Assembly (NCBI GenBank): GCA_964016885.1
Contig: OZ024742.1
Coordinates: 66,216,001 to 66,280,000 of the forward strand
DNA length: 64,000 bases
Direction: 5' to 3'
From: Eledone cirrhosa
Lineage: Eukaryota
Shown here: one piece after another, positions 3,242 to 55,804 of the stretch
Position numbering within the stretch: the stretch's first letter is position 1
How the letters are laid out: every line of letters starts with the position of its first letter
Translations under genes and position numbers: made by a program
Notes under the pieces: generated by a model
Told to the model about the DNA's origin: nothing
Seen by the model: only the letters and a program-made list of their open reading frames with translations
Database searches by the model: none

Positions 3242-4903
3242 AATGACAACATGAACAACAACAACAACAATGATAACAACAACACCACCAACAACAGCAA
3301 CAATGATAACAACAACACCACCAACAACAACAGCAACATGAACAACTCCACGAACAAGGAAAATATTTCTTTTGCTCAAACCGTCCAAAAGACGGAACTG
3401 TTCACATACCTTGACATTTCCAATGCTAGGGAAATGTTAAGCGATGCAAAACAATACGTAACTTTTGGTGAGAGTGGTGCTTTTAGCATCACTTCTCCTC
3501 AACAGCTACGCAGAGAAACTGTTCCAAAAACAGTAATTTTTAGGACAGTTTCAAATGCGTCGAAAAAACCAGTTCAATTATCCCAAAACGATATTGAACT
3601 GGTTCTGGAGAATTCCATGAAGGATATTGCCTTCATCCAAAAAGGGTAACTTTTTGGAAACATTTCGGTGTTGTTGAAAGACCAATTGACAGCACAAAAA
3701 TATTCTGTATCGCCGATTGTGTCCCCCCTTTACACCTTTTTCCCCACATATATGGGAAAAAGAACACAAAAAATAAAAATTTCGAACATTGCACCAAATG
3801 TAAACGTCTGGTGGATTCTAACTGGCTTCATCGATTTCGACGAAGACATAATCATTTCGGTGGGAAAGTCCTCCAGAGGCACATTCAATGGTACAAGCAT
3901 TCAATGGTACAAATGAGGCCAGAACGGATAGCTAAAATACCCCAACGTGTGCCTCTGGATGGAATTTCACACATAAACATTTCTGTTGAGGGTAGGCGGC
4001 CTTCATGTTACCACTGTTTAAGCAGTGGTCACCTGAAGGCTTACTGTCCTCAGTTAACTACAAAAAAAGAGGCACTACTGCCAACACCCAAAACAACAAC
4101 ACAACCGCCACCACCACCACCACCACTACTACCACCACAACAACAACAACAAAAACACGCAAACACAACCAAAACAAGAACAACAAACCAACCTGCAAGC
4201 ACAGTCCCACCCAACCCCACTGCAAAAAGACCCACAAACACAACAACTCCCAAAAACATACCCCTTCCAAATAACACAGACACCACAACGGACGAGGCCC
4301 CCACATCATCACCAAGTGACGATGAGGGAGAGCCTCTCCGTTCGAAAAGAAAGAAGAAAAAACAAAACAAGAACAAAAAAAACAACAAACATACAACCAC
4401 CAACACAAACAACGCAAACCTTACAACCCCCCCCCCCGTCCCGAAAACAAAACCACGACATCACTCCAAACACAAACACCTACAACAAACGAAAGCTCCC
4501 ACAAGAACAACAGACAAAAACCACCGCAACACAACAAGAACATTATACATACATAAACAGTAAAAACAAAACTGTAATGGAGGTCATCTCCAACGACCCT
4601 TCGGTGAAAACCGTAGGGAAATATTTTTCGAACTGTGTAGACAAACCTAATTTAAAGATGATTAGGGTCCCTACGGACACCTATAAGTCTTTAAAGGAAA
4701 ACTTTCCTAATGAAGTGGATAATCCTTGTGTTAAACACATTAACCGCGTCCTTTTAAATCGTTTCCCCACCCTCACCCCAGACACCCCTACCCCACCAAA
4801 CATCTCCGTACCCACCCCGCCGGAAACCACCACCCACCCAGACAACCCCTTTAACACCCCCATGGAAACCGTGCGGCCTGATACCAGGGAGACGAAGAGG
4901 TGA
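3116..4903 (+). pseudogene. Tx1-A ORF1 (gag-like nucleic-acid-binding protein), disrupted
   Basis: Poly-Asn N-terminus, CYHCLSSGHLKAYC (CX2CX4HX4C) and a Pro/Thr/Lys-rich tail, split over ORFs 3116, 3668, 3811 and 4316. Confidence 0.8.
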
Positions 4904-4940
4904 GTGTTTTCTTCTCTTCTTTTAACTTTTTAGAACCAAC

Positions 4941-7900
4941 ATGGCCAATATAAGATTTGGATGTGTGAATGTACGCGGCCTGGGGATGCCCTGGAAACAG
5001 GGCAAACTCTTAAACGACCTCAAGTCGCACAGTATGGATGTAGTAGCCATTTATGAGTCCAGGATCCACAGCGAGCGACAGCTGGCCCCCATCTTCGATG
5101 TCTTTGAGATCTTCGCATCTCTCTGTCGGCCGGGGGGTGGGGGCGGGGTTGCTGTTTTGCTGCGGAAACACCTGGGCCTCGTAACACAGACGGTACATCT
5201 GAACCGGGAGGGTCAACTGGTGGTCCTAGACGTTGACGGTAATGAAGGTGGAGGCTTCAGGCTGGTGGCCGCATATACCCCATCCGGGACACCGCGGCCA
5301 GACTTCTTCAACGTCTAGAGACTTTTCTGGGAACGTCCCGCTCCTTTCTTTTAGTGGGGGACTGTAAATGGAATCCTAGATGCACGTTGGGACTATGTGG
5401 GAGCATGTCTCGATAAAGGGGGGTGTACAGCCTCAAACAGTTAATCGGCCGATTTGATCTGGCCGATAGATATCAAATAAATTTTCCGACTGTGCCACTG
5501 TGGATGTGGACTAATCGTAGCGGAACATCTAGATCGTACATAGATAGGGTTCTAGTTAGAAATAAGGATAGGGACATGTTAAGCTGTCCACACATGTTCA
5601 TGGTTGCCTATTCAGATCACAAACTAGTGACCTGCATGGTCAACCTTGATAGAACCCATAGACAAGGACCCGGCTACTGGAAGTTGAACTTGTCGTTACC
5701 GACATGCAAAGCCTACAGTAGACGGATTAGCACTTTAGTTAACCAGCACTTGACAGGGGCCATTGTCAACAACAGATGGTGGTACTCTCTCAAGAGGGCA
5801 GTTAGATTAGGCTCGTTAGTTTTTAGTAAAAGATTAGCCTTAGATAGAAATAGAACCGAGAAGGAACTGGTAGATAAAGTAGAAGATGCAATTAAAAGTG
5901 GCAACGTAGCCAGCGTGCTAGAAACAAGAACGGCCTTGGACCAGTTCTTCGACGCAAATCACGAGGGCTGCATTGTCAGAAGCAAAATACGTGCTCTGGG
6001 AAACGAGGGAGCCAAAGCTGTTAGCTGGGCCTGAGTGTCGGAGGCAAAAAGTGGCAACAAGTCCACGATTCGGTCTTTGAAGGACCAAAACGGACGCGTG
6101 TAACGTGACCCGAAGCAGATGTGTGCGGCCTTTCAGCAACACTTTGCTCAACTGTTCGCGCAGGGCGGCGCGGCGGGAGGGGCTATGGATTTCAGTCGAC
6201 CTACCGCGACTCTCGGACAGCGAGGCAAAGTTCTGCGAAAAGCCGATTTCAGCCACTGAGATAGGGGACGCGCTGAGCCAATTCGGCAAACGCAAATCTC
6301 CAGGTCTCGACGATCTACCCTACGAATTTTACGTAGCAATGCCAGACTTATTCTCCGGTCTCCTGGAAGCGGTCTACTGCAACTGGCAACAGAACGGGAA
6401 AATTCCCAGTTCTGTGACCGGGGGCGTAGTCACACTAGTCAGGAAGGACGAGAATAAGGGGGATGACAGGCATTTTCCGGCCCATAATTCTGCTAAACAC
6501 AGAGTTACAGATTTTGGCCAAGGTGTTGGCAAAGAGGCTGGTGCTTGTCGTCGAGAACCTGGTGGGAGAAGCGCATACACGACAACCTCCACCTCATGCG
6601 ATACATCATAGAGAGTGTGGGGTGTAAATCCGGCATCGGTGGGGCCCTAATCAACTTGGATCAGTCTAAGGCTTTCGATAGGGTTGACCATCGTTACCTG
6701 GATGCGGTGCTCGAGGCGGCAGGCTGCGGACCCGTGTTCAGGGGCTGGATTGCTGCAATGCACAATGGCAACATCTGCTCAAGGGTCAAGGTGAACGGCT
6801 ACCTCTCGGCGCCGTTCCATATCACGCGATGCATTCGACAGGGATTCCCTCTCTCCTCCCTTCTGCACGTACTGCCTCTCGAGCCACTAATGCGGAAGTT
6901 GGAGCTATTGCAGGGCACCCCCCTGGAACCGGGACTTCGGAAAGCGGCGTCGGCCTACGCCGACGACGTGACACTACTGGTGCCCAGCACCTCGCACATC
7001 GGGGAAGTCGCACCTTACTGAAGGAATACGAAAGTTTCACAGGAGCGAAGCTGAACCGGGACAAGTCCATCGGTTTGCAACTCGGATCGTGGAGAGGCAA
7101 ACGGATGCCTTCCGATGGCGTCGTCGGACGCTGGACGGAAGGACCTGTAAAGCTGCTCGGGGTCTGGTTTGGTCCGGACCTCCAGGTGGAGAAGAACTGG
7201 AACGAGGTGACGGCCAACGTATTTGCACTCACCCAGAAACGGGCCGAGTACAAACTATCCTTGAAAGGTCGACCGGAGGTGGCGAATACTTTTATAGCTC
7301 CGCCATGTACTACTGCTTGACCGTCGGGCCTTGTCCAGCCAAAACGCTGACCAAAATGGAGCGCGCGCTCTTCCAATTCCTTTGGAAGAGGCGGGCTCCT
7401 TTGGTGAGAAGATCCATCTGCTGCCAACACCCTTCCAACGGAGGTCTGGGGATGTCATGACTGACGATGCGCAAACACGCGGTCATGCTGCGGCATCTCT
7501 ACGCATTCCTCACCGAACAACCGGTGTGGGCCCCGTTCGTGAGGCGAGCCTTCCCATGACTGGTCTCGCTGACCGAGCTGCAGTCCTGGGTCAAGCAAAA
7601 CCGAGGAAAATGGGCGACTGGCACATCGAATGTGCTCAGGCGCTCACAGCCCTCTGGCAGACGGACCCGGCGATCAGTGGAGACTCCACTTCGTCATTCT
7701 ATAGAGCGTTGAACCGCAGCAAGTGCGACGACGCGCTCGGTGAAACTCTAGGCGTAGAGGAAGACGAACTAGCCAGTCTGTTCGGTAGGACCTTCCGCCC
7801 GGGACCGATGGACAACTTCCAAAAGTCCCTGGCCTGGCAGTGCTACGGAGGAGCTCTACCAGTTCGAAATAAGCTCTACAGACATGGGCGCCCGGGCAGG

Positions 7901-10730: not shown

Positions 10731-10984
10731 ATAGTAATAATAATAAACTTGAAGACTAAAATTCAAAGAGGGTTCGATAAGGATAAATATATATCAAATA
10801 TATAAGAACCGTAGAGCAAATATTTATTAAAATAACAGATTATTAAAATAACAGATTAAAGATTCATTGCTTAAACTTTAATCTGTTATTTTAATAAATA
10901 TTTGCTCTACGGTTCTTATATATTTGATATATATTTATCCTTATCGAACACTCTTTGAATTTTAGTCTTCAAGTTTATTATTAT

Positions 10985-10990
<6 letters not shown>
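10731..10990. repeat. Fold-back inverted repeat with ~115-130 bp arms; a single-arm relative lies at 56660-56770
   Basis: 10731-10860 is the near-exact reverse complement of 10878-10990. Confidence 0.85.
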
Positions 10991-11037
<47 letters not shown>

Positions 11038-27000: not shown

Positions 27001-27157
27001 GTCTGTCTATGTCGATCTCACAGATCACACATTTGTGGTCTGTGTAGTCGACTATTTTAAATTGTGGACAACTTATACTAGCATTATCTAGTTCCCTGCA
27101 GAATACCCTATCTAGATACGATCTGGATGAGCCGATGCGGTTTGTCCATGTCCACAT
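24025..27157 (-). mobile_element. 5'-truncated Tx1-clade LINE (diverged subfamily with its own 3' UTR) in (TAA)n
   Basis: ORF 24644-26740 is an RT (AYADD, CPRC..HALVQC). It starts mid-APE at MWTWTNR, has a stop near 26777 and a frameshift near 24640, and ends CCTTGTGGCCAATAAAGAAATC(ATT)n. Confidence 0.9.
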
Positions 27158-27175
27158 AATAATAATAATAATAAT

Positions 27176-30100
27176 GCTTTCTTTATTAACCACAAGGGTT
27201 TACATAAAGTAGACATTAAGGACAGTACAGGACAATACAGGACGGTGTAAATGGGCATTTCTGCGTGTAAAAAAAACAGAGGATGTAATAAAAAAATAAC
27301 AATGAAAAATTCCCCAATAAGGGGAGACTTCCGAGGGACATTTGTGGAGAAAGCCCATTAAAAGGCCACAGTGACCCTGACCACCAGAGCAAGTGCCCTC
27401 TCCCAGTTTTCCACCTTTATTTTACAGACACATACTCAGAGTAGGCCCATTCACTTGGGCCATACTTTCTTCTCACACCCATCTTTCAACAAAATACTGG
27501 GAAGAGAGCACTTCCCTCTCTACCCTGATTTTCCTTTTCAAATGAAATTTGAAAAAGTTAATCAGGGAATCACCGAAGAGGTAAGTGCTCGTCTTCAGCC
27601 CTTTCAAACGTGTCCACCATACTATCTCTTTCGCCATGGCCACCAGACAGATAAAAACTGCATGCTTTCACGGCTAAAGGAAGAGGGCGGGGAAATCCTC
27701 ACGATGGACTCAGCTGATAGTTGGATCCGTCCTACACGTGACAGCAGGTGTTCGACATAAACCCACAAGTCAGCAATTTCTGGAAGTTGTCCATAGGCCC
27801 CGGCCCGAAAGTCCTTCCGAAGAGATTGGCTAGTTGATTTTCGTCGATGCCTAGAGTTTCTCCAAGTACGTCGTCGCTCTTCCTCTCCACTGATCCTCTA
27901 TAGGACGCCAAGGTGGAGTTTCCACCGATCACATTGCCCAATTGGTCGAGGGCTGTGAGCGCCTGAAGACATTCCAGTCTCCAAGCGCTCCCTCTCGGTC
28001 TTCGCTTGACACAGGATTGCAACTTCGTCAAGGAGACGAGCTTGGGAAAGACGTGTCTAGCAAACGGCAACCACACCTAATCACCGTCGAGGAAGAGGTG
28101 GAGATGTCGTAGCCCGAGCGCGTGTCTGCGCAACATCAGCCACGGCATTCCCAGCCCTCCACGTAGCGGGTGTTGACAGCAAATGGACCGCCTGACCATA
28201 GGAGCGCGTCCCTTCCACAAAAAGCGAAAGAGCAAACGCTCCAGCGCAGTCAGGTGGGGCTTAGGACAAGGTACGACGGTCAGGCGGTAGTAGATGACGG
28301 ACGCGATGTACGCGTTAGCCACCTCCGCTCGACCTTTCAGGGATAGCTTCCTCTCCGCCCATTTCTGGGTGAGAGAAGCCACCCTGCTCGTCACCTCGTC
28401 CCAGTTTTTATCCGTCTGGAGATCCGGACCGAAACAGACCCCTAGCAATTTAACCGGTCCGTCCATCCAGCGCCCGATGACGCTGTTCGATGGCGTGGAC
28501 CTGCCTCTTCAGGTGCCGAGCTGCAGGCCCACTAACTTTTCCTGGTTGATCATTGCTCCTGTTACCGCTTCGTATTCTCTTAGTGTAGTGCCGATCGCCT
28601 CGATGTGTTTGGCGTTCGTCACCACTACGGTAACATCGTCCGCATATGCTGACACGGATCTTCCGCATCCTAGTTCGGGCGGGACCCCCCTCAACGTCTC
28701 CAGTTTGTGCAGTAATGTCTCGAGAGTCGATACGTAGAAGAGGGACGAGAGGGGACATCCTTGAAGGACCGAGCGCATGATGTTGAACGGTTCCGAAAGG
28801 TGACCGTTCACTCTCACCACAGAGCAGATGTCGCTGTGCATGGCAGCGATCCAGCCTCTGAAGACGGACCCAAAGCCAGCCGCCCTCAGGACTGCCGCTA
28901 TGTAACGATGGTCGACCCTATCGAAGGCTTTCGACTGATCTAATTTGATCAAGGATCCACCCGTGCCAGGTTCCCTAGCTACCTTCTCTACGATGTATCG
29001 CATGAGGTGTAGGTTGTCGTAGATGGATCTGTCGGGAATGGCACATGTCTGCGCCTCTCCCACCAGACCACCAACGACAAGCGCCAACATCTTTGCTAGC
29101 ACCTTGGCCAAAATCTTGAACTCTGTGTTTAGCAGAGTTATGGGCCTGAAATTATCTATGTTATCACCCTTGTTCGGATCCTTTCTCAGCAGCACCACAG
29201 CTCCTCGGCTCACAGAGCTGGGAATTTTCCCGTTCTGTTGCCAGTTACAGTAGACGTCCGCCAAGAGGCCTCCGAACAAGTCTGGCATCTGTACGTAAAG
29301 TTCATAGGGCAGACTATCCAAACCAGGCGATTTACCCCTTATGCAGCCAGTCATTGCCTTCCGTACTTCAGCGGCTGTTATCGGTTATGGTTTCTCCATC
29401 CTTTTCACTGCTTCTGGCCTCCTCCGGAAGGATGTCCTTATAAATCCTCCTGGAGAGTGCTTGTCGGAAGTTTCCGTTGTCTTTGTGGAATTTTTGTTTT
29501 AGTGTCGTGTACGTTTTCTGTGAGATGCGAGTGACTTGTATGTGTGGAGGTGGTGTGAACTTTTGGGTGGTTGTGTAGTCTTTTTCTGTGATGCTGGTGT
29601 TGTGTTGGATGTAGTGTAATAATTGGTTGTTGTTCAAATTTATTGCTGTGTAGTGTGTATCGTTTTGGTTGTTTTGTTTTGTTTGCGTTTGTTGTGGGTT
29701 TGTTTCTGTTTCGCTTTTTGGTGACTTTTGTGGTGTTGGTGATGGTGGTGTTGGGCTTAATGATGGTGATGGTGTTGGTGTTTGTGGTGATGGGTTTGGT
29801 GATGCTGGTGTGGATGGTGGCATAGCTGTCCTAACTTTTTTGTTTGATTGTTTTTTTGTTTCCCTCTGTATTTTGGTTTTGGAGGGGGAAGGAAGGGGAT
29901 TTTTCTTTTTGGGTTTCTTTTTCTTTTTTTCTTTTATTCTAAACCGTTCCCCACTCCTCGTCATCACAATCTGTCTCCAGTGGCGATAGGTCGGGGAGTG
30001 GAAAATCCTCCACAGGCGTTGGTTTTTGTTGTGGCGTGGTGGATGGTGTAGGCGCTGTTGTTTTATCTGGCGCGTTGGGTGGTGGTGGTGTTGGTTTTGC

Positions 30101-32322: not shown

Positions 32323-35300
32323 GGCGACCTACGTAGTAAATCGTATCATTGTGAGCTCCGCAAAGGTTTCTTATTTTCAGTTGTTTAAAATTGCCATTTT
32401 ATTGTTAACTGTATATAAGTGCACATACATTGATTTCTGAAAAGGTCACTCAAAAATATTGGGGCGTTGAGCCCAAAATTTTAACTTTTTATAATTATCA
32501 AACAAAACTTTTTCTTTGAAAAATCATGGATGACTCAAGGTCACACCTTCCTCACAAACTAAGACCTCACACCGACACCACCATTGTAAATATTATTACG
32601 TTTGCCAACACTAAAAATATAAGCAGTAGCAATATTTTAAATTTGTCTCAGGCAGACATTCATTTCCCGCCATTACCAATGACTGCAGGTGTTACAGCCG
32701 CCCCCCTCCCCCCCCACACACAACCACAATACCGACAACAGAAACAAAAGAAAAAAATAAATTAACTCGTGATATCGAAATGAATTCAACCAAAATGAAC
32801 TCTTCCACAGCGAACACCACTGACGCCACCACCATCACAACTGAAACTAAAATTAACAATAACAAAAATAACAATAACAACAACAGCAACAATGAAATTA
32901 AGAAAACTATCCTGACTTTTGCGAGAGTAGCAAAACAGTGCGAAGCATTCCAGGTAACTCAAGAGGAATTAGAAGAAGCCAAAAAAATGGTAAAGAAAGA
33001 TGCGTACAGGGTCAGCCTCACGCCACCCCTCCCGCACGTAATAAAATGGAGCATCGGCGCCTATACAACGTGTCTTACCGGACGATTAACATAAAATCGC
33101 GCCGAGTGAAACGGGCATCCGAGTCCCAAATTCAAAAAGCTTTGGGACATGTCTGGGCAAAAAAACCCACATCAGACGTGGGCAGAAATATGGAACCGTG
33201 GACGTGTTCTTTGAAACACCACAGGCGGCCAGAGAACACTTAATGACCCCATTAAGAAGTGACGACTTCACACACGTCCCAAGCTATTGTGGCCAGAGAC
33301 TCGTGAAGATCAGGGTGACCCACGTTCCACCGGCCATCGAAATTCCCTGGCTAATGGCTGCCGTCCTCGCCGGCATCGAAGTCAACACCAAGATAATCGA
33401 AATAGCGAAAGAAAAGCAGGAGAACTGGTCCGGATCTGGGATGGAGCTCCTGATCCAGCCGACCAAAAAAGCATTGAGGAGATCCCAGAGGTAATAGACC
33501 TCACTGACGGCAGCCACCTCACCGTAATCGTCGAGGGCAGAATGCCTAGGTGTGTCGTTTGTGGTGAAGGAACCCACCTAAGGGCTGTCTGCCCTCAGGC
33601 TAAAAGGTTGAGGCCACCTCTTTTACCGACCCCAGTGACTCAACCATCAACACCAGCAGCAGCAGAAATGGCAGCAACAACTGTAGCAGCAGCAACAGAA
33701 GCAACTGTAACAGCAACAACCCCAGCAACAGTAGCAAAACCAACATCACTACCACCCAACGCGCCAGAACTAGCACCTGCGCCTACACCATCAACCACGC
33801 CACAACCAAAACCAACGCCCGTGGAGGATTTTTCCACTCCCCGACCTATCGCAACTGGAGACAGATTGTGACGACGAGGAGTGGTAAACGGTATAAGAAA
33901 AAAAGAAAAAAAGAAAAAAAGAAAAAAAGAAAAAAAGAAAAAAAGAAAAAGAAACCAAAAAATAAAGAAATTCTCTTACCTCCCCCTCCAAAAACAAAAT
34001 ACAGAGGGAAACAAATAAACTATCAAACAAAAAAGTTAGGACAGCTATGCCACCATCCACACCAGCATCACCAACTCCATCACCACAAACACCAACACCA
34101 TCACCATCATTAAGCGCAACACCACCATCACCAACACAACAAAAGTCACCAAAAAGCGAAACAGAAACAAACCCACAACAAACGCAAACAAAACAAAACA
34201 ACCAAAACGATACACACTACACAGCATTAAATTTGAACAACAACCAATTATTACACTACATCCAACACACCAGCATCACAGAAAAAGACTACACAACCAC
34301 CCAAAAGTTCACACCACCTCCACACATACAAATCACTCGCATCACACAGAAAACGTACACGACACTAAAACAAAAATTCCCCCAAAACATCGGAGTCTTT
34401 CGACAAACACTCTCCAGGAGGATTTATAAGGACATCCTTCCGGAGGAGGCCAGAAGCAGTGAAAAGGATGGAGAAACCATCTTTCCTCTACGAGAAGTAA
34501 GGTAAGTGGTCTTTCCCATCTTTTCCACTCCATTTTAACATGACCTCACTCAGAATAGGCAGCATAAATGCTCGTGGCTTGGGTTCGTCATGGAAGCAGG
34601 GCCACCTGCTCAACGACCTCAGGCGTTTTGAACTGTCTGACAGTTACCGATTGAATTTACCGAATGTTCCAATGTGGACTTGGACAAATCGCATAGGGTC
34701 ATCCAGATCATATCTAGGTAGAGTATTTTGTAGGGAAATAGATAGGTCTAGCATAGGCTGTCCACAATTCAAGATAGTCAGCTACACGGACCACAAATTC
34801 GTGATCTGTGTGCTTGACTTAGATAGGCTTCACAGACGAGGACTCGGCTACTGGAAGCTAAACGCGTCCTTACCAGCGCGCAAGGCCTACAGAGAAACGG
34901 ATTAGCGAACTAGTTAAGCGGGTGTTGACGGGGACCATCATGAACAACAAGTGGTGGTTTGCTCTGAAAAGAGCGATTAGAATAGAGTCTATTAGGTTTA
35001 GTAAGGCTTTAGCAATAGAGAAAAATAGAGCAGAGGGAGAATTAGTTAGAAAATTAGACGAGGCGCTTAGCAAAGGCATCGCGACTGACGTACTTGCGGC
35101 GAAATTGGCCCTTGACAAATTCTTCAATGCAAAGCACGAAGGCTGCGTTGTCAGAGCTAGGGTGCGTGCTCTCAGACACGAGGGGACGAAAGCCGTTCAA
35201 TGGGCCCGAGTGGTGGAGGCGCGTCGTGGGAACAAAGCCACGATCCGGTATTTGGTGGACCACGACGGGCGTATGCTACTCTATCCCGGGCAAATGGATG

Positions 35301-37644
35301 AAGCTTTTCAGCGACACTTCGCAGAGCTGTTCGGGGGCAGCGGCGGGCCGGATCGAGGGATGGACTTTAGTGTCTACCTCGACGAACTGCCGCAGCTCTT
35401 GGCCACTGAGGCGGAGTGTTGCGAAAGCCGATAACAGCCGCTGAAATACGGGAGGCAATGACTGGCTGCCCAAGTGGTAAATCGCCCGGTTTGGATAGTC
35501 TGCCCTATGAACTTTACGTACAGATGCCAGACTTGTTCGGAGACCTTTTGGCGGACGTCTACTGCAACTGGCAACAGACCGGAGAATTCCCAGCTCTGTG
35601 AGCCGAGGAGCTGTGGCGCTATTGAGAAAGGATCCGAACAAGGGGGATAACATAGATCATTTCAGGCCCATAACTCTGCTAAACACAGAGTTCAAGGTTT
35701 TGGCCAAGGTGCTAGCAACGAGGTTGGCGCTTGTCGTTGGTGGTCTGGTGGGAGAGGCGCAGACATGCGCCATTCCCGACAGATCCATCTACGATAACCT
35801 ACACCTCATGCGATACATCGTAGAGAAGGTAGCTAGGGAACCTGGCACGGGTGGATCCTTGATCAAATTAGATCAGTCGAAAGCTTTCGATAGGGTCGAC
35901 CATCGTTACCTAGCGGCAGTCCTGAGGTCTGCTGGCTTTGGGCCCGTCTTCAGAGGCTGGATCGCTGCCATACACAGTGACATCTGCTCTGTGGTGAGAG
36001 TGAACCGTTCAACCTCATGCGCTCGGTTCGCCAAGGATGTCCCCTCTCGTCCCTCTTGTTGTTATTGACTCTCGAGCCATTACTGCACAAACTGGAGACG
36101 TTGAAGGGGGTCCCACGCGAACTAGGATGCGGAATATCCGTGTCAGCATATGCGGACGATGTCACCTTAGTGGTGTCGAACGCCAAACACATCGATGTGA
36201 TCGGCACTATACTAAGAGAATACGAAGCGGTGACAGGAGCAATGATCAACCAGGAAATGGTTTGGTTCGGTCCGGACCTCCAGATGGACAAAAACTGGGA
36301 CAAGGTGACGAGCAGGGTGGCTTCTCTCACACAGAAATGGGCGGAGAGGAAGCTATCCCTGAAGTGTCGAGCAGAGGTGGCTAACGCGTACATCGCGTCT
36401 GTCATCTACTACCGCCTGACCATCGTACCTCGTCCTAAGCTCCGCTGACTGCGCTGGAGCGTTTGCTCTTTCACTTTATGTGGAAGGGACGCGCTCCGAT
36501 GGTCAGGCAGTCCATCTGCAGTCAACACCCGATACGTGAAGGGCTGGGCATGCCGTGGCTGATGATGCGCAGACACGCGCTCAGGCTACGACATTTCTAC
36601 CTCTTCCTCGACTGTGATCAGGTATGGTCGCCGTTTGCTAGACACGTCTTTCCCCAGCTCGTCTCCTTGACGGAGCTGCAGTCCTGGGTCAAACGAAGAC
36701 CGAGAGGGAGCGCTTGGAGACTGGAATGTCTTCAGGCGCTCACAGCCCTCGACCATTTGGGCAATGTGTTCGGTGGAAACTCCACCTTGGCGTTTTATAG
36801 AGGATTAGTGGAGGAGAAGAGCGACGACGTACTTGGAGAAACTCTAGGCGTCGACGAAAATCAACTAGCCAATCTCTTCGGAAGGACTTTCGGGTCGGGG
36901 CCTATGGACAACTTCCAGAAATCCCTGGCCTGGCAGTGCTACCGAGGATCTTTGCCAGTTCGGGATAAACTCTACCGGCATGGAGGTGCCGTCAGCCGGA
37001 CATGTCCGAGATGCGCGCAGGGCGACGAAACCGTCCTGCACGCACACGTCCAATGTCTGAGCATTGCTGACTTGTGGGTTTATGTCGAACAACTGCTGTC
37101 ACGTGTAGGACGGATCAAGCTATCAGCTGAGTCCATCGTGAGGATTGCCCCGCCCTCTTCCTTTAGCCGGGAAGAGCAGGCTGTTTTTATCTGCCTGGTG
37201 GCCATGGCGAAAAAGATAGTATGGTGGACACGTTTGAAAGGGCTGAGCACTTACCTCTTCGGTGATGCCCTGATTAACTTTTTCAAATTTCATTTAAAAA
37301 TGAAAATCTGGGTAGAGAAGGAAGTGCTCTCTTCCCAGCATTTGGTTGAAAGATGGGTGAGAGAAGCAAGTATGGCCGGAGTATGTGTCTGTAAATTAAA
37401 TGTGGAAAACTGGGAGAGGGCACTTGCCCTGGTGGTCAGGGTCACTGTGGCTTTTCAATAGGCTTTCTCCACCAATGTCCCTCGGAAGTCTCTCCCCTAT
37501 TGGGGAATTTGTTCATTGTTCTATTATTACATCCTCTGTTTCTTTTTTTTTACACGCAGAAATGCCCATTTGTACCGCCCTGTATTGTCCTGTACTGTCC
37601 TTAATGTCTACTTTATGTAAACCCTTGTGGTTAATAAAGAAATC
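32323..37644 (+). mobile_element. Full-span, decayed Tx1-clade LINE with type-C ORF1, in (ATT)n
   Basis: ORF1 fragments include CVVCGEGTHLRAVC. ORF2 starts at 34540, has a 426-bp in-frame APE deletion and is broken into fragments 34922, 35598, 36017 and 36463. Confidence 0.9.
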
Positions 37645-37666
37645 ATTATTATTATTATTATTATTA

Positions 37667-38191: not shown

Positions 38192-40285
38192 ATGGCTACG
38201 AAAAAGAAATTTCATACGTCACTCCCACTCATTCCGTCTTCTTCTTCCTCAATCATCACTACAGCAGAGAGAAGATTGTCTCTCTCCCTCCCTTCTTTAA
38301 ATGTGTCTCTCTCCCTCCCTTCTCTTTCGCAAGTGACGAAAGAAAAGAAAAGTCTCGTGCAAAGCGTGCAAGGTTTCTCCACGACGACGACGACAGCGAC
38401 GAAACAGGTGTGCGGGAAATACGAAAACCCAGTTCATTCGTCTGACGTCAGGAATAATAACAGTAGCAGCCGTAATAACAACAGCAACAGTGACAATGAA
38501 AACAACAGTAGCAGCCGCAACAGCATCACCAGCAGCATAAACAACAACAGCATTAGCAGCAGCAACACCAACAACAACCACAGCAACAGCGGCGGAGGCA
38601 GTAGTCGTAGTACCTGCAGCAACAACAAAAGTACCAGCAGCTCTGACGACAGCAACAGCAGAGAAAAACCAATCTCATTTGCAGGTATTGCGAAAAACTT
38701 GGAAACAATCCTCATAACAAATGAGGAATTAGAGGAAGCGAAGAAGATGGTGACAAAGAACGGACACCGAGCAATCTGCAAGGCAGCGAAAAATTTTTTC
38801 GAAACCCAAGAGCACTGTACGGTCACGTACCGTACAGTAAGTACAAAATCCCGTAGGGTGGAAAGAGCCACAGAGGCCCAAATACAAAAAGCCTTGGGGT
38901 CTGTGTGGCAGCGGAAAACGCACATCACCCGAGGCAAAAAATATGCCACCGTAGACGTACTTTTTGCCACACCCCAGGAGGCAAAGGCCCAATCAGTAGT
39001 GACCCTAAGGAGCGAGGAAATGGTGTTGGTGCCCTCCTACTGTGGGCAAAAAATTGTGAGGGTCAAACTGACCCACGTCCCCCCCGGAATGACCCCTTCT
39101 TGGCTGGCCGCGTCTGTCCTCGTCGGAATCGAGGACAAAACAACTGTACTGCAAGTACAGAAAAAAGTAAGAGAAGATTGGGTCGGCTCCTCCATTGAGA
39201 TGCTAATCCAAACCAACCAGGAGTGCATCGAAGCTATCCCGGATGTGATAGACTTCGATAACGGCACTCAACTGCCCATAAGTGTTGAGGGCAAACGCCC
39301 GAAATGCTTTCGCTGTGGATCGAAGACTCACCTCAGGGCCTTCTGCAACGAGAAGACCCTGAGAAAGGAGAAAACCCCCCTCCTTCCGAATCCGGCTCCA
39401 CGGCTACCAGCAACAGGACAAGCGGCAACCAGGAACGATAGGCCCGTGGCACCCATACCCACTCCACGGAAATCAAAAACAGCAGCAGCAGTGGAAATAC
39501 TAACAACAACAACAGCAATACCAAATGCAGCTGCAACAGAGACTCCAGTGCAAACATCACCAACAACAACAAGTGAAAGAGTGGAGTTGGTACCCCTCCC
39601 CGACCTCACAGAATCAGACATGGAGTGTGAGGTGGGAGAGAGATGGCAAAAGGTCGTAAGAAGGCACAAACGCAGAAGCAGCGCATCGTCGCCTTTGAAA
39701 AGGGAGGAAAGAAATGAGAAAAGGGTAAAGTCTACTGCAAAGAGACCCACAGCAGCAACAACACCAACACCATCACCACCCACACTAGCGCCACCATCAC
39801 CACCGGCGACAACCCCACCGCCAACAACACCTTCAACACCACCACCACAAGCACCAACATCGCAAACACAACAACAAAACACACACACCCAGCAACAACG
39901 ACAAGAAAATAGCAGAACCACACCCCACCCCCAGAAAAACAAATGCACGGCAATAAATACACACAACAAGAAACTAATGACTTACATAATTGAACACACA
40001 GACATTTCACAACAGGACTACATAATACCAGCACCAATCAAAACGCCAACTAACATAAGACTGCTAAAAATAGCACAGAAACAATACACAAATATTAAAA
40101 CGAAATTCCCCAACGCAGTTGGTGATTTCAGGGACCTAGGAGGAACCATCAATCGAAGAGTATACTCAGACATTCTCTTAGAAGAGCCGACGACCAGCCG
40201 AAGGGACGATTCAACGGTCCCTTCACCAGACGATCAAGTGAAAAGGGATGTAAAAACCATCCCTCCTCTACCAAAAGTACGGTAA
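38192..40285 (+). CDS. Tx1 ORF1 protein, 697 aa
   Basis: Ser/Asn low-complexity N-terminus, CFRCGSKTHLRAFC zinc knuckle, basic patch and Pro/Thr-rich region; located directly upstream of ORF2. Confidence 0.88.
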   Translation: MATKKKFHTSLPLIPSSSSSIITTAERRLSLSLPSLNVSLSLPSLSQVTKEKKSLVQSVQGFSTTTTTATKQVCGKYENPVHSSDVRNNNSSSRNNNSNSDNENNSSSRNSITSSINNNSISSSNTNNNHSNSGGGSSRSTCSNNKSTSSSDDSNSREKPISFAGIAKNLETILITNEELEEAKKMVTKNGHRAICKAAKNFFETQEHCTVTYRTVSTKSRRVERATEAQIQKALGSVWQRKTHITRGKKYATVDVLFATPQEAKAQSVVTLRSEEMVLVPSYCGQKIVRVKLTHVPPGMTPSWLAASVLVGIEDKTTVLQVQKKVREDWVGSSIEMLIQTNQECIEAIPDVIDFDNGTQLPISVEGKRPKCFRCGSKTHLRAFCNEKTLRKEKTPLLPNPAPRLPATGQAATRNDRPVAPIPTPRKSKTAAAVEILTTTTAIPNAAATETPVQTSPTTTSERVELVPLPDLTESDMECEVGERWQKVVRRHKRRSSASSPLKREERNEKRVKSTAKRPTAATTPTPSPPTLAPPSPPATTPPPTTPSTPPPQAPTSQTQQQNTHTQQQRQENSRTTPHPQKNKCTAINTHNKKLMTYIIEHTDISQQDYIIPAPIKTPTNIRLLKIAQKQYTNIKTKFPNAVGDFRDLGGTINRRVYSDILLEEPTTSRRDDSTVPSPDDQVKRDVKTIPPLPKVR

Positions 40286-40320
40286 GTGGTCTTTCCCATC
40301 TTTTCCACTCTATTTTAAAC

Positions 40321-43300
40321 ATGACCTCACTCAGAATAGGCAGCATAAATGCGCGTGGCTTGGGGTCGTCATGGAAGCAGGGTCACCTGCTCAACGACCT
40401 CAGGTCACTAAACATAGATGTAGTGGCCATCAGCGAGACCAGAATCTCCGAAGCACGGGCCTTCGCACCGATCTTCGGCGGCTACGATGTGTACGCATCT
40501 CCCAGCCGTCCTGGATCCGGTGGAGGAGTTGCTGTACTTTTTCGGAGAGGTTTGGATCTCGCCATACGGGCCATCTTCCTGGACCCAGAGGGTAAGCTGG
40601 TGGTGCTGGACGTGACCAGCGGAGACGGGCAAGCTTTCAGGCTAGTGGCCGTCTATGCCCCGACAGGAGCAGGGCGGCCTGATTTCTTCCGGCGTCTGGA
40701 GACCTTTCTTGGAACGTCGCGCTCTTTAGTGTTAGTGGGCGACTGGAACGGGATCTTAGATGCACGCTGGGACTGTGTGGGATTAGCGGATAGGGGTGGA
40801 GGGTGCAAGAGCCTCACCAACCTGCTCAGGCGTTTTGAACTGTCTGACAGGTACCGATTGGATTTCCCGAATGTGCCAATGTGGACTTGGACAAACCGCA
40901 TAGGGTCATCCAGATCATATCTAGATAGAGTATTTTTGTAGGGAAATAGATAGGTCTAGCATAGGCTGTCCACAATTCAAGATAGTCAGCTACACGGACC
41001 ACAAATTCGTGATCTGTGTGCTTGACTTAGATAGGCTTCATAGACGAGGACCCGGCTACTGGAATCTAAACGCGTCCTTACCAGCGCGCAAGGCCTACAG
41101 AGACCAGATTAGCGAACTAGTTAAGCGGGCGTTGACGGGGGCCATCGTCAACAACAAGTGGTGGTTTGCTCTGAAAAGAGCGATTAGAATAGAATCGATT
41201 AGGTTTAGTAAGGCTTTAGCAATAGAGAAAAATAGAGCAGAGGGAGAACTAGTTAGAAAATTAGACGAGGCGCTTAGCAAAGGCATTGCGACCGACGTGC
41301 TTGCGGCGAAATTGGCCCTTGACCAATTCTTCAATGCAAAGCACGAAGGCTGCGTTGTCAGAGCTAGGGTGCGTGCTCTCAGAGACGAGGGGACGAAAGC
41401 CGTTCAATGGGCCCGAGTGGCGGAGGCGCGTCGTGGCAACAAAGCCACGATCCGGTCTTTGGTGGACCACGACGGGCGCATGCTACTCGATCCCGGGCAA
41501 ATGTGTGAAGCTTTTCAGCGACACTTCACTCAGCTGTTCGGGGGCAGCGGGGGGCCGGGTAGAGGGATGGACTTTAGTGTCTACCTCGACGGACTGCCGC
41601 GGCTCTCGGCCACTGAGGCGAAGTGTTGCGAAAAGCCGATAACAGCCGCTGAAGTACGGGAGGCAATGACTGGCTGCACAAGGGGTAAATCGCCTGGTTT
41701 GGATGGTCTGCCCTATGAACTTTACGTACAGATGCCAGACTTGTTCGGAGGCCTCTTGGCGGACGTCTACTGCAACTGGCAACAGAACGGGAGAATTCCC
41801 AGTTCTGTGAGCCGAGGAGCGGTGGCACTGCTGAGAAAGGATCCGAACAAGGGGGATAACATAGACAATTTCCGGCCCATAACTCTGCTAAACACAGAGT
41901 TTAAGATTTTGGCCAAGGTGCTAGCAAAGAGGTTGGCGCTTGTCGTTGGTGGTCTGGTGGGAGAGGCGCAGACATGCGCCATTCTCGACAGATCCATCCA
42001 CGACAACCTCCACCTCATGCGATACATCGTAGAGAGGGTAGCTAGGGAACCTGGCACGGGTGGGTCCTTGATCAATTTAGATCAGTCGAAAGCTTTCGAT
42101 AGGGTCAACCATCGTTACCTAGCGGCAGTCCTGAGGGCGGCTGGCTTTGGGCCCGTCTTCAGAGGCTGGATCGCTGCCATGCACAGCGACATCTGCTCTG
42201 TGGTGAGAGTGAACGGTCACCTGTCGGAACCGTTCAACATCATGCGCTCGGTCCGCCAAGGATGTCCCCTCTCGTCCCTCCTGTACGTATTGACTCTCGA
42301 GCCATTACTGCACAAACTGGAGACGTTGAGGGGGGTCCCGCGCGAACTAGGATGCGGAAGATCCGTGTCAGCATATGCGGACGATGTCACCGTAGTGGTG
42401 TCGAACGCCAAACACATCGAGGCGATCGGCACTACACTAAGAGAATACGAAGCGGTGACAGGAGCAATGATCAACCAGGAAAAGTCAGTGGGCCTGCAGC
42501 TCGGCACCTGGAGAGGCAGGTCCATGCCGTCCAACAGCGTCGTCGGGCGCTGGACGGACGGACCGGTTAAATTGCTAGGGGTCTGGTTCGGTCCGGACCT
42601 CCAGACGGACAAAAACTGGGACGAGGTGACGAGCAGGGTGGCTTCTCTCACCCAGAAATGGGCGGAGAGGAAGCTATCCCTGAAAGGTCGAGCGGAGGTG
42701 GCTAACGCGTACATCGCGTCTGTCATCTGCTACCGCCTAACCGTCGTACCTTGTCCTAAGCCTCGCCTGACTGCGCTGGAGCGTTTGCTCTTTCGCTTTT
42801 TGTGGAAGGGACGTGCTCCGATGGTCAGGCGGTCCATCTGTTGTCAACACCCGCTACGTGGAGGGCTGGGCATGCCGTGGCTGATGATGCGCAGGCACGC
42901 GCTCAGGCTACGACATCTCCACCTCTTCCTCGACGGTGATCAGGTGTGGTCGCCGTTTGCTAGACGCGTTTTTCCCCAGCTCGTTTCCTTGACGGAGCTG
43001 CAGTCTTGTGTCAAGCGAAGACCGAGAGGGAGCGCCTGGAGACTGGAATGTCTTCAGGCGCTCACAGCCCTCGACCAATCGGGCAATGTGATCGGTGGAA
43101 ACTCCACCTCGGCGTTCTATAGAGGATTAGTGGAGGGGAAGAGCGACGACGTACTTGGGGAAACTCTAGGCGTCGACGAAAATCAACTAGCCAATCTCTT
43201 CGGAAGAACTTTCGGGCCAGGGCCTATGGACAACTTCCAGAAATCTCTGGCCTGGCAGTGCTACCGAGGAGCCTTGCCAGTTCGGGATAAACTCTACAGG

Positions 43301-43741
43301 CATGGAGGTGCCGTCAGCCGGGCATGTCCGAGATGCGCGCAGGGCGACGAAACCGCCCTGCACGCACTCGTCCAGTGTCCGAAAATTGCTGACTTGTGGG
43401 TTTATGTCGAACACCTGCTGTCGCGTTTAGGACGGATCCAGCTATCATCTGAGTCTATCGTGAGGATTGCCCCGCCCTCCTCCTTTAGCCGGGAAGGGCA
43501 GGCAGTTTTTATCTGTCTGGTGGCCATGGCGAAAGAGATAGTATGGTGGACACGTTTGAAAGGGCTGAAGACGAGCACTTACCTCTTCGGTGATGCTCTG
43601 ATTGACTTTTTCAAATTTCATTTGAAAAGGAAAATCAGAGTAGAGAAGGAAGTGCTCTCTTCCCAGCATTTTGTTGAAAGATGGGTGAGAGAAGCAAGAA
43701 TGGCCCGAGTGAATGGGCCGACTCTGAGTATATATCTGTAA
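40321..43741 (+). CDS. Tx1 ORF2 (APE endonuclease-RT-CCHC) with a single +1 T frameshift at 40933-40937
   Basis: Motifs NARGL, SETR, VYAP, GDWN, YLDRVF, then TDH, KSPGLDG, FRPITLLN, RQGCPLS, AYADD and CPRC..HALVQC. This copy has 5 T where the sister copy (~34726) has 4. Confidence 0.9.
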
Positions 43742-44002
43742 ACTAAAGGTGGAAAACTGGGAGAGGGCACTTGCCTTGGTGGTCAGGGTCATTGTGGCTT
43801 TTTACTGGGCTTTCTCCACAAATGTCCCTCCGAAGTCTCCCCCCCTATTGGGGAATTTTTCATTGTTATTTTCATTGTTATTTTTGTTACATCCTCTGTT
43901 TTTGTTTTTTTACACGCAGAAATGCCCATTTGTACCGTCCTGCATTGTCCTGCACTGTCCTTAATGTCTACTTTATGTAAACCCTTGTGGTTAATAAAGA
44001 AA

Positions 44003-44004
<2 letters not shown>

Positions 44005-44061
<57 letters not shown>

Positions 44062-44071: not shown

Positions 44072-46963
44072 TTCCTTGAATCTCAGTCATTGATGTTGGT
44101 TAACTGGAAAGTCCGTTGGATTGAATATCAAGCCACTACCTGCAGCCTCAGATATTCAGGACGTATCGGAGGGTTCTTGCTGTTCCAAGCAAGCATGCCT
44201 TTTGAAGCGTTCCAAAAAGCGTGAAGGGGCCGATTTTCTTTAACCATCCCTGGAAACCTTTGGAGATAGTCCCCAGTGCGCCTATGACAATTGGGATCAC
44301 TTTGACTTCATGGCAGTTCCAAATCCTTTTCACCTCCCACTTTAGGTCCTGGTATCGGTTAATTTTCTCCCTCTCCTTCTCTTGCACTCTCGTGTCGAAC
44401 GGGCAGGCCACATCCACAATCAGGCACGATCTTTTTTCTTTGTCCACAACCACCAGGTCAGGTCTATTGTGTTCCAGTTTTTTGTCCGTCTGTATCCTAA
44501 AATCCCACAGCACCTTCACCTGACTGTTCTCCATCACCGCCTCTGGCCTATGCTCATACCATTTCTCAGAATGTGGTAGATTGTTTACTTTGCACAGGTG
44601 CCAGTGGATCACCCTGCCCATCACATCGTGTCTCCAGCCCTTATAGTGGGTCTGGGCTAGGTGTTTACACTCGGACACAATGTGAGCCACAGTCTCCTCT
44701 CTCTCTCTCTCCACAGATCCTGCACAGTGGGCTAGCCTCCTCCTTGTAGATATGGTGCTTCAACCACTTCGTTTTGAGGGCCTGCTCCTGCGCAGCCATT
44801 AGCATTCCTTCTGTAGCCTTTTTGAGGTCTCCTCTTCTCAACCAGTTCCATGTCTGTGGATCTCTAAATTCAGTTTTCTCAAAGAAGGTACTATGAAGGG
44901 ATTTTCCCTTAAGGCTGCTCTTCCTCCTTGATGTTATTTCCTCCTTGGATATCCCCTGGCCTACTGTCCCCTCCTTCAGTACAGCTCTGAGCATTGGCTC
45001 CTTACTATAGGTCACGTATTTGTATAGGTTGTTTTTCTCCATCTGAACACAGTCCTCTATGCTGATAAGACCTCTTCCACCCTCAGATCTCCTTAGGTAG
45101 AGTCTATCGACATCACTCCTCTTGTGGAACATGTTGTAGATAGTCAATATCTTCCTAGTCTTCCTATCCATTTCTTTTTGTTCAGCAACATTCCATCTCA
45201 GAATTCCCGCACTGTACCTAATAATAGACACAGCTCGGGAATTTACTGCGCTTATGGCATTTCTGCTGTTCAGATGTGACTTCAATACGCTCCTTACTCT
45301 CCGAATGTATTCAGTTCTTAACAATTCCTTCATTTTTTTGTTCTTTATGCCATCAGCCTCCAGAACGCCCAAATACTTGTATCCTTCCTCAGAGTCAATT
45401 TCCTTTATCATCTCACCTGTTGGTATCTGGATCCCGTTACTTCTGCTCAACCTAACCCTCTTCATCACAATGACTCCACATTTACCAATACCAAACTGCA
45501 TACATATATCACTGCTGAAAATACGGACAGTGTCAACAAGCACATCCAACTCCTTCTCACTTTTCCCGAAGAGCTTAAGATCGTCCATGAAGAGGAGGTG
45601 ATTGATGGTAAGCTCTCCCCTTCCCAACTTGTATCCTGCTCTCACTTTTCGCAGCATAATGGTCAAGGGCATCAGGGCAAGGACAAACAACAGAGGGGAC
45701 AGGCTATCTCCCTGGAAGATACCTCTCTTGATCTTCACGCTTCCCAAGGATACTCCAGTTGATGTCAACTCTGTCTCCCAGGACCCCATACTCCTGTCCA
45801 GCAACTGTCTGATGTTATCTGCCACCCTGAAGATCTCCAGGCTTTTGGTGATCCAGGAATGAGGCACCATGTCAAATGCCTTTCTGTAGTCTATCCATCC
45901 CATGGCAAGATCAGTGTGTCTCCTCCTGCAATTCCCCATTACCATCTTATCAATAAGCAACTGGTCCTTTGTACCACGTGACTTCTTTCGGCATCCTTTC
46001 TGTTCGTCCGGTAACAAGTTGTTTGTGTGGAGGTGATGGTAGATTTCCTCAGACACAATGCTCGTCAACAGTTTCCACATTACGGGCAGACATGTGATAG
46101 GTCTATAGTTGGTAACATCATTACCCTTGATTCGGTCTTTCATTATCAGAACTGTGGTACCTTTTGTCAACCACTCTGGCACCTCACCCGACACCAAGCA
46201 GTCATTGAACATGGCCGTCAGCTTCGGGTGGAGGGATGTTAAATGTTTAATCCAATACCCCTGCACACCATCTGGGCCTGGTGATTTCCAGTTGGTTAGT
46301 TTTTTGGCTTGCCCCTTAAGAGTTTCAACTGTGATACTCAAATTAGTCTGTTGTTGTGCCTGCTCACCGATCTCCCTCTGTACTGTCTCAATCCACCCTG
46401 CCTGGGCATTGTGTCTAACATCCTGCTCCCATATTCCTCTCCAGAATGTTTTAGCTTGTTCCGCCCCAGGGATCAAGTCGTTGCCTCTTTCTTTCCCCTC
46501 AAGCTGTCCAAACAGCATCTTCTGGTTGTTGTCGAACATGCGGTTCTGTTTATACTGACTGACTCTGTTCTCGTATCGCCTGATTTTGGCACTCTTTGCT
46601 ACAATGCGTTGCTTCAATTCCTCTATGATAATATTTAGCTTTTTACTCCTAGTTTTGTATTTTATTTCCAGTCTATTTTTAGTGCCTATGTTTTTTAGTG
46701 TCCCATTCAGTAGTGACTCAAGCTTTCCTATGTCATTTCTCATTTCCCCGATTTGCCCACTCAGTCGCTTCTTCCACCACGGCTCTGCTCTTTCTCGTCT
46801 GTTGTTCCCTCTCGCTTTTATACCAAGTAGTTTCCTCACCGTATTTGCTGTTGCTTTGAGGATATTGTTGCACTGGTGAAGACTCCTCGCCTCAAGGTAT
46901 GGGATGACTTTGTTTACCTTAGCTGTTGTTTCTTTTAACTTTTTCCTGTCTACAAATCTTAGG

Positions 46964-46965
<2 letters not shown>
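44072..46965 (-). mobile_element. 5'-truncated second copy of the R4/Dong element
   Basis: Nearly identical to 21101-23990. A 4-nt (GA)n expansion at ~44700 splits it into ORFs 44665-46839 and 44148-44714. Confidence 0.95.

Positions 46966-47047
<82 letters not shown>
46966..47047. repeat. (TTA)n tract, right boundary of the cluster; an uninterrupted (TTA)n lies at 47404-47476
   Basis: Directly visible. Confidence 0.9.
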
Positions 47048-49205: not shown

Positions 49206-49332
49206 AAAGTTATATTTAAATTGTTGGGTTACAACGAGTAAATATTTATAACTGATATAAAAGCACTCAACAAGTATTTGGAGTATATTTACGATATTAA
49301 ATAAATGGAAATTATATTTATAAAACCATATT

Positions 49333-49399
49333 TATTTCATTATATATATTTCAGGGATATCATATTAAAAAATATGTTATGCCTTCTTCAGACAAAATA
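49333..49399 (-). ncRNA. Hammerhead ribozyme (inverted copy of 49899-49965)
   Basis: Reverse complement of the plus-strand motif. Confidence 0.6.
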
Positions 49400-49898
49400 C
49401 AATATTAACAGTCTTATAAATAGATAGATTCGACATACCTTTCAACATCGACTTGCATTTGAAAAGTTGATTTGGTAGTAAAAATATTATGGACAGTTGT
49501 AAAAAGAAAGAAAGAAAGAAAGAAAGAAAAACGAAGAAAAAGAAGAAATGCATGCAACTAAATAGAGAGAGATAGAAAGATATATAGAGAAGAAATTCAT
49601 GTAAAGAAACAGATAGAGATATATAGAGAGAGGAAAAAAATATCTATCTCCCTCTATTTTTGTCCTCTCTCTATATATCTCTATCTGTTTCTTTACATGA
49701 ATTTCTTCTCTATATATCTTTCTATCTCTCTCTATTTAGTTGCATGCATTTCTTCTTTTTCTTCGTTTTTCTTTCTTTCTTTCTTTCTTTCTTTTTACAA
49801 CTGTCCATAATATTTTTACTACCTATTTTTACTTTTCAAATGCAAGTCGATGTTGAAAGGTATGTCGAATCTATCTATTTATAAGACTGTTTATATTG

Positions 49899-49965
49899 TA
49901 TTTTGTCTGAAGAAGGCATAACATATTTTTTAATATGATATCCCTGAAATATATATAATGAAATA
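49899..49965 (+). ncRNA. Minimal type I hammerhead ribozyme, TATATA-loop variant
   Basis: TATTTTGT-CTGAAGA-AGG c ATA a CATATT tttt AATATG a TAT c CCT-GAAA-TATATA-TA-ATGAAATA. Confidence 0.6.
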
Positions 49966-50256
49966 AATATGGTTTTATAAATATAATTTCCATTTATTTA
50001 ATACCGCATATATATATATATTTATTACAGAAATGTATGTGTGTATATTTCTTTATGTGTAGAAAATAAACAAAAGCATTTTCGCACGCAGATACACATA
50101 CAAACACACCGAAAGGCATGTACAGGCAAACATTAATTATTCACGCACACACACACAGAGACACACACACACGCACGCACACACACACACAAACACATAC
50201 ACAGAGACACACACGCACACACTCACACACACACACAAACACATACACAGAGACAC

Positions 50257-54880: not shown

Positions 54881-54976
54881 CCTATACACACATACAAACC
54901 CACACACACATATGTATATATATAAAAATAAATATATATACATATATATATATATGCATATATATATATATATATA

Positions 54977-55804
54977 TAAGTATGTACACGTACATACATA
55001 TATGTATACCGACGTACAGTAGTATGTATATATATATATACATACATGCACACATATATATATGCACGTATGGATTCACCGAACATTTATTATAATGCTC
55101 GGTGTGTTTGTAAACAAACATCCCGTATTAAGCCGTAGTGTCTAGCAACCACCGTTGCTAGACACTACGGCTTAATACGGGATGTTTGTTTACAAACACA
55201 CCGAGCATTATAATACATGTTCGGTGAATCCATACGTGCATATATATATGTGTGCATGTATGTATATATATATATACATACTACTGTACGTCGGTATACA
55301 TATATGTATGTACGTGTACATACTTATATTTAAGTAACAGCCGTACTAAGAGTGGGAAATGAAATATCGTTTCATTTTTTCCGTTTATCGTTTTCGGTGC
55401 ACCCGGCCGATTAACCCACTCGATATGCATATTGGGCTACTCGGCCGTCAATATGCATAAGGTAAGTATATACGTTCAACAATCTGGCAGGAAGGTATAC
55501 GTTGCTGACGATAGCTAACAAGCTTGAAACTAGTACAGCGTTCCTTTGTCAATGTTGAACAAACGAGCAACGGTGGTTGCTAGACACTACGGCTTAATAC
55601 GGGATGTTTGTTTACAAACACACCGAGCATTATAATAAATGTTCGGTGAATCCATACGTGCATATATATATGTGTGCATGTATGTATATATATATATACA
55701 TACTACTGTACGTCGGTATACATATATGTATGTACGTGTACATACTTATATTTAAGTAACAGCCGTACTAAGAGTGGGAAATGAAATATCGTTTCATTTT
55801 TTCC

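Follow-up and report, generated by a model that had tools for sequence, protein, structure and literature searches.

A strong 5' splice site, or donor, sits at the end of the first open reading frame (ORF1) of a long interspersed nuclear element (LINE) from Eledone cirrhosa. The copy studied here lies in a window of 64,000 nucleotides (nt), which is the whole stretch analysed: positions 66,216,001 to 66,280,000 of the forward strand of contig OZ024742.1 (assembly GCA_964016885.1). Coordinates below count from the first letter of this window, unless another sequence is named. The conserved donor at the end of ORF1 is a real feature of this LINE clade. It may serve to make a messenger RNA for ORF1 only, by splicing to a distant acceptor, rather than the fusion of ORF1 to ORF2 that the initial annotation proposed.

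Such a conserved donor in a LINE clade is apparently undescribed. The full-text searches, which reach few subscription journals or Repbase reports, gave no account of a Tx1-like LINE that keeps a donor where its ORF1 ends, and none of a spliced ORF1-ORF2 fusion.

The window copy is an L1-clade LINE without long terminal repeats (LTRs), and it has two separate ORFs. It belongs to family B, which is the largest family: a 29-base start of its ORF2 is matched exactly at least 4,613 times in the 3.0-Gb genome. A degenerate pattern finds 2,479 more ORF2 starts from other families.

The stop codon of ORF1 lies inside the consensus donor ACG/GTAAGT, where the slash marks the exon-intron border and the TAA is at 40283-85. 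The initial annotation had seen this, and its further reading of the letters also holds. Downstream of the donor hexamer, the next AG falls in the fifth codon of ORF2, with its G at 40334. Removal of 40282-40334 (53 nt) cuts both frames in phase 2, so that the frame is kept, and the join is open over the 100 codons tested. The same design is found in a second copy of family B (a phase-2 intron of 52 nt at 34502-34553) and in a copy of family A (a donor at 4900 and a 34-nt join, also in phase 2). The two family-B copies share donor, spacer and ORF2 start through descent, and are therefore not independent evidence. The in-frame match in the window copies is weak evidence.

The conservation of the donor itself is another matter. 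Splice-site scores are given here in bits, from approximate metazoan weight matrices that were not trained on host genes. Of the 5,939 stop-like triplets in the window, only 24 overlap a donor that scores at least 9 bits, so the placement at the ORF1 stop is not chance. Among 30 family-B copies chosen on their ORF2 start, 29 retain the donor, and in the remaining one it is deleted. A broader sample of 80 loci, selected on ORF2 start alone, yielded 78 junctions. A donor of at least 8 bits is present in the expected window in 69 of these, versus 40 of 780 control windows, which makes the motif a genuine, selected signal resembling a 5' splice site.

The donor also stands out within each element. 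It is the top-scoring sense-strand GT in eight of nine family representatives and the third in the ninth; in L136, an intact sibling from family B, it ranks first of 281 GT sites. Endonuclease identity is 61-90% among the six of these nine representatives that are aligned. The variants seen are GTAAGT, GTGAGT, GTAATT, GTAGGT and GTATGT, which are those tolerated by a 5' splice site. The distance between donor and ORF1 stop never exceeds about 5 nt, and the donor takes three registers relative to that stop. In families A-prime and B2 it is in phase 1, which means it is uncoupled from the stop.

A search for relatives by a broad ORF2 profile yielded 80 loci in metagenomes and 58 in genome records. 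The closest are tandem arrays in one assembly labelled as bacterial (the CAXXMW contigs), 41% identical over ORF2. These arrays are likely host animal DNA. In the tree they join the families of the Eledone genome in a clade that comprises 13 rows (support 100/100). No relative turned up when metagenome and viral contigs were scanned with narrow profiles.

In one CAXXMW family the stop comes first and is followed by G/GTAAGT. The donor is 4 nt after the stop, the distance from stop to ORF2 ATG is 14 nt, and the donor is again rank 1 of the element. Since the donor follows the stop, a fusion is impossible there. All 71 matches to this junction are unspliced (43 overlapping loci, one assembly).

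Outside the clade the motif is rare. A junction survey of 97 loci gave 70 junction rows, of which 31 remained after filtering for sufficient ORF1 length, a short spacer and the presence of an ATG. Four of these are the CAXXMW donor family; 2 of the 27 others reach 9 bits (L175 and L198).

Precise intron loss was sought among the genomic copies and none was found: an acceptor-side search for the exact 53-nt join gave 0 of 22 matches, beside the unspliced copies counted above, and the upper 95% bound on this loss is about 0.07%. Donor-side searches with three patterns gave joins in 0 of 16, 0 of 19 and 0 of 15 matches. Together these patterns cover acceptors 40334, 40343, 40403 and 43919, as well as most arbitrary partners. 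A pattern that leaves out the precise join shows no recurring upstream partner in 54 matches, and of the 18 internal deletions in the loci examined not one is bounded by GT and AG.

A LINE RNA from which the ORF2 protein (ORF2p) can be made is preferentially copied in cis. That these searches found no spliced copy speaks against splicing to an RNA that still encodes ORF2p, and is compatible with a spliced RNA that lacks ORF2. For human L1, 131 of 6,609 full-length copies are spliced, or about 2% (PMC5860796).

Two deletions that come close to a splice at the proposed acceptor are not of the GT-AG type. The one in L054 begins 6-8 nt ahead of the donor. The one in L055 (1206-1825, a single copy) starts at a cryptic donor-like site in ORF1 (39725), ends one base off 40334, is out of frame and is not a precise splice.

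Of four runs whose kind is not stated, three have contigs that span the junction in unspliced form, and the 15 joints shown of 318 include none from 40281 to 40335; this says nothing on expression. Protein searches for extensions of ORF1 found none, which is weak evidence. Among the ORF2 homologues examined that are long or extended at the N-terminus, no ORF1 fusion is seen. The one close match with a long N-terminal extension, P0055, was considered as a fusion; it retains the ORF2 methionine and in our reading is more like a decayed unspliced copy.

In the reading that we tentatively favour, the U1 small nuclear ribonucleoprotein would bind the donor at the end of ORF1. A fraction of transcripts would then be spliced to a distal acceptor, with its first exon base at 43920 in this copy, and would lose all of ORF2. 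The predicted product is ORF1 with a tail of 19 residues, ending in a stop before the AATAAA. Unspliced RNA would give ORF2p by reinitiation at the retained ATG at 40321, and would also serve as the template for retrotransposition. An RNA with only ORF1 lacks ORF2, so it would rarely be copied under cis-preference, which fits the zero spliced copies. These splicing steps are predicted from the sequence.

The rank and conservation of the donor, its splice-site-like variants, its survival when uncoupled from the stop and the precedent of LTR elements all favour this reading. The position of the donor after the stop in relatives suits such a message, with the ORF1 protein (ORF1p) left unaltered. 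Strong acceptors are also present in the 3' untranslated region (UTR) of family B and of both related outside families. The latter are the L244 family and the donor-bearing CAXXMW family, which have a strong donor 17-43 nt past the ORF2 stop and, 190-280 nt further on, a 3' UTR acceptor of 11-14 bits.

Several other findings weigh against it. Some families retain the donor without a matching 3' UTR acceptor: the corresponding site of B2 reads CAC, and the acceptors that A, A-prime, C and D have close to the end of ORF2 are modest, at about 5-8 bits. In L134, a B-type variant of the 3' UTR, the same join would read open into the repeat tail, as judged by eye. The L244 family lies inside the clade and has no donor at the end of ORF1 (2.0 bits). 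Joins of the donor to 43920 number 0 of 15 genomic matches, a result that the model expects and that gives it no positive support. The approximate nature of the splice-site weights must be counted here too.

The much higher output of ORF1p than of ORF2p from bicistronic LINE RNA has been explained for few elements, and usually by translation. A donor kept among families and in relatives with 41% identity points to control by RNA processing, convergent with the LTR elements copia, BARE1 and EVD. It also means that thousands of strong sense-strand donors are scattered in the genome, able to pull host transcripts into splicing.

Possible, and on balance rather unlikely, is a role for the donor as a U1 anchor that is independent of splicing; a U1-related role was already the alternative of the initial annotation. 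Bound U1 would protect the full-length RNA from early cleavage, or steer its export or its escape from silencing, with little or no splicing, and the U-rich tract behind the donor would help. This predicts a conserved donor without a conserved acceptor, as found, and no spliced genomic copy of any kind was found either. The spacer is the sole internal non-coding place of the element, which could explain the position. At the donor of EVD, U1 suppresses early termination (PMC5580714). Against this, in two intact elements neither AATAAA nor ATTAAA occurs from the donor to the ORF2 end, which leaves U1 without an obvious downstream signal to protect; about 0.5 would be expected by composition, which makes this a weak test. 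Such hexamers upstream, within 350 nt, are present in family B and missing in A-prime.

It is unlikely that the motif is a signal for termination and reinitiation, or an inherited stop context that merely resembles a donor. It is true that never more than 5 nt separate it from the ORF1 stop, that an unstructured spacer and a retained ATG follow it, and that reinitiation is the described route for ORF2 of L1 and SART1 (PMC5972666). Yet the donor consensus is matched on both sides of the GT and is kept in three registers, and this survival is unlike a stop context. The junction also has no special hairpin: 1 of 10 junctions beats shuffles of its spacer at p below 0.05. A hairpin that hides the donor was rejected on the same count.

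The initial annotation had proposed that splicing of the intron of 52-53 nt yields a polyprotein of ORF1, the AP endonuclease (APE) and the reverse transcriptase (RT), in a switch like that between gag and gag-pol. The data leave this splice-controlled fusion unsupported, and we consider it quite improbable. In its favour, the join is in frame in B, the largest family, and the rule of taking the first AG adds A, C2 and D. Two checks set by the initial annotation went against the fusion: the searches for precise intron loss came up empty, and donor and phase are not conserved together. The first-AG join is in frame in only four of nine junction types. It is out of frame in A-prime, B2, B2-prime, B3 and C1.

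Four of nine is close to what can be expected anyway. A stop inside G/TRA forces the donor into phase 2, and the AGs of ORF2 are evenly phased, with 85 of 259, or about one in three, at phase 2. A bias of AGs toward phase 2 was rejected on these counts (85 of 259; 77 of 247). ORF1 frames were taken as the longest open frame, or, in decayed copies, by peptide likeness to relatives.

The families that break the frame are not just decayed ones. A-prime has 309 exact matches, and combines a donor in phase 1 with a strong first acceptor in phase 2; its copy L122 has an intact ORF1, open over 641 codons, and an ORF2 of 1,139 codons from a conserved glycine. B2-prime has 62 exact matches, and its first 84 nt are without a phase-1 AG. 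For B2 there is a point on the other side: a second AG at +59 (a TAG in phase 1, 5 nt beyond the first) scores 1.3 versus 0.6 bits and would restore the frame.

The acceptor is a further obstacle to the fusion. The one ending at 40334 scores only -0.3 bits, because the pyrimidine tract sits by the donor, away from the AG. In family A the introns would span 28-38 nt. Introns of this length are shorter than most animals splice. Finally, the stop precedes the donor in relatives, the 22 acceptor-side matches hold no precise loss even though a spliced RNA coding for ORF2 should be favoured in cis, and no ORF1 fusion is among the extended ORF2 homologues examined.

The family-B donor could conceivably serve two acceptors, the one in the 3' UTR for ORF1 only, and 40335 at a low level for the ORF1-APE-RT polyprotein, with both spliced RNAs excluded from retrotransposition. 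We regard this as improbable. If true, alternative splicing would set the protein ratio in this LINE, and the element could make a fused polyprotein like that of a retrovirus.

Very unlikely is a scheme in which ORF1 is a skippable cassette, with 5' UTR donors joined to an acceptor before ORF2 to give an ORF2-only message and the ORF1-end donor defining the exon: there are strong acceptors just before the ORF2 ATG in family A (10.7-11.0 bits) and B3 (11.2 bits), and two donors (GT at 2814 and 2910) lie in the 5' UTR of the family-A copy in the window, but a good acceptor at this place is missing from B, B2, C and D, and 0 of 3 family-A matches join an upstream donor to the pre-ATG acceptor, beside 1,292 unspliced copies.

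The closest working models for an ORF1-only message are copia, BARE1 and EVD, and the element is not a member of those families. Splicing of copia, from Drosophila, removes almost all of pol, and the donor of BARE1, from barley, lies 2 nt beyond gag; the spliced RNA of BARE1 can be excluded from replication (PMC3735527). What is shared is a donor at the end of a structural ORF, a message for the structural protein only, and replication of the unspliced RNA (PMC3735527), with the splice being a prediction in our case. The differences are that copia and BARE1 are LTR elements with one gag-pol ORF and splicing that has been shown, whereas the present element is non-LTR, has two ORFs with a stop of its own for ORF1, and is known from sequence.

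EVD, a Ty1/copia element of Arabidopsis, has its donor at the gag-pol border. This donor is better conserved than the acceptor, is coupled to a Gag-only RNA, and has a role through U1 that is independent of splicing (PMC5580714). EVD differs in that its intron has been mapped and in that it possesses a proximal poly(A) site; here no AATAAA or ATTAAA is found downstream of the donor within ORF2.

Human L1 is of the same superfamily, and likewise has a non-coding spacer between its ORFs and splice sites inside the LINE. In the classes of SpIREs counted for it, the donor is at position 97 of the 5' UTR and about 2% of copies are spliced (PMC5860796), whereas the present donor coincides with the end of ORF1 and the searches gave no spliced copy. 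L1 and SART1 are also bicistronic, and their retained ORF2 ATG likewise lies a short way beyond ORF1: the spacer has 63 nt in L1 (PMC5972666) and 35 nt in the present element. A difference is that the parts of PMC5972666 drawn on here mention no donor over the ORF1 stop. The splicing between ORFs in Ogre, of the Ty3/gypsy group (PMC3735527), is what a fusion would resemble; here, unlike in that case, the in-frame join is not conserved in the clade and the acceptor is weak.

The features of the window that bear on these readings are collected in Table 1.

Table 1. Features around the ORF1-ORF2 junction and in related copies of the window; a slash marks the exon-intron border.
Feature	Position	Strand	Score or basis
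ORF1, 697 aa, low-complexity	38192..40285	+	translation; no Pfam match
CCHC zinc knuckle (CX2CX4HX4C) within ORF1	39305-39346	+	read from translation
5' splice-site motif ACG/GTAAGT over ORF1 stop (GT 40282-83, TAA 40283-85)	40279..40287	+	
Spacer between ORFs, AG-free, pyrimidine-rich; adjoins the donor, not the proposed acceptor	40288..40320	+	
ORF2 ATG, retained in sampled families; the proposed 53-nt splice would delete it	40321..40323	+	
Acceptor proposed by the initial annotation, CAG in codon 4-5 of ORF2	40332..40334	+	-0.3 bits, approximate acceptor model, scored on identical sibling L136
ORF2: AP endonuclease, RT, zinc-binding domain (PF03372, PF00078, PF13966)	40321..43741	+	Pfam
3' UTR acceptor, U-rich tract ending in CAG, first exon base 43920; candidate partner of the donor	43906..43919	+	10.6 bits; best acceptor downstream of the donor in family B
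AATAAA signal, then (ATT)n tail ending the element	43993..43998	+	
Second family-B copy: AAG/GTAAGT (GT 34502), spacer, ATG 34540, AG ending 34553; ORF2 internally deleted	34499..34553	+	
Family-A copy: GAG/GTGAGT (GT 4900) over TGA stop; strong acceptor ending 4933; ORF2 ATG 4941	4897..4943	+	

ORF2 of the window copy is disrupted by a frameshift near 40933. In its intact family-B siblings L136 and L137 it has 1,139 codons. By Pfam, the AP endonuclease is N-terminal, followed by the RT, with the zinc domain C-terminal. Compared with solved structures, human L1 ORF2p is the best match (E 6e-52), and R2 is weaker (6e-22). A related, decayed ORF2 fragment is found inside a gene model of Octopus sinensis, with 64% identity over 61 residues.

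Tx1 elements have a separate ORF1 with a CCHC zinc knuckle, and insert into simple repeats, often in tandem arrays. The window copy has such a knuckle. The elements studied here end in (ATT)n or (TATC)n and copies lie about 6 kb apart, which matches the insertion trait. The Tx1 label is that of the initial annotation, and we take it over as an assumption; the tree groups unnamed rows only. Head-to-tail arrays of family B with a spacing of about 6 kb are seen at G000:C1:55427332-55453278 and C1:57089489-57101652, and fit insertion into the elements' own simple-repeat tails.

Up to a point some 45 nt upstream of the donor, the end of ORF1 (40200-40285) matches B2-prime; from there on it matches family B. 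This suggests a recombinant ORF1 end, with ORF1s swapped just upstream of the donor.

Some other splice-site-like signals were seen in these LINEs. The antisense strand of family B has a strong donor, GAG/GTAAGT, near the 3' end of ORF2 (at 43583, 37255 and 27580, within 43383-44024, 37063-37664 and 27156-27779), which could affect host genes that carry antisense insertions. The family-A copy in the window has strong 5' UTR donors at 2811-2819 and 2907-2915 and an acceptor-like site at about 2985-2996, just before the ATG; this may be a 5' UTR intron. The CAXXMW relatives have an apparent 3' UTR intron (L246:7468-7750, L244:7459-7650, L279:7486-7730), the donor of which is unspliced in 63 of 63 matches (43 overlapping loci).

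Tandem arrays of animal-type LINEs with intact ORFs are present in several genome records labelled as bacterial (L244-L285 and L292, which are the CAXXMW contigs, and L286-L301). This is likely host DNA that was binned with the bacteria.

A different RT element, with a single ORF of 1,130 aa, flanks the Tx1-like cluster in the window as two near-identical copies in opposite orientation (20522-23914 and 44148-46968). Outside the LINEs, self-complementary stretches of 360-730 nt lie at 10690-11031, 49284-50014 and 54971-55332, and are probably inverted-repeat elements.

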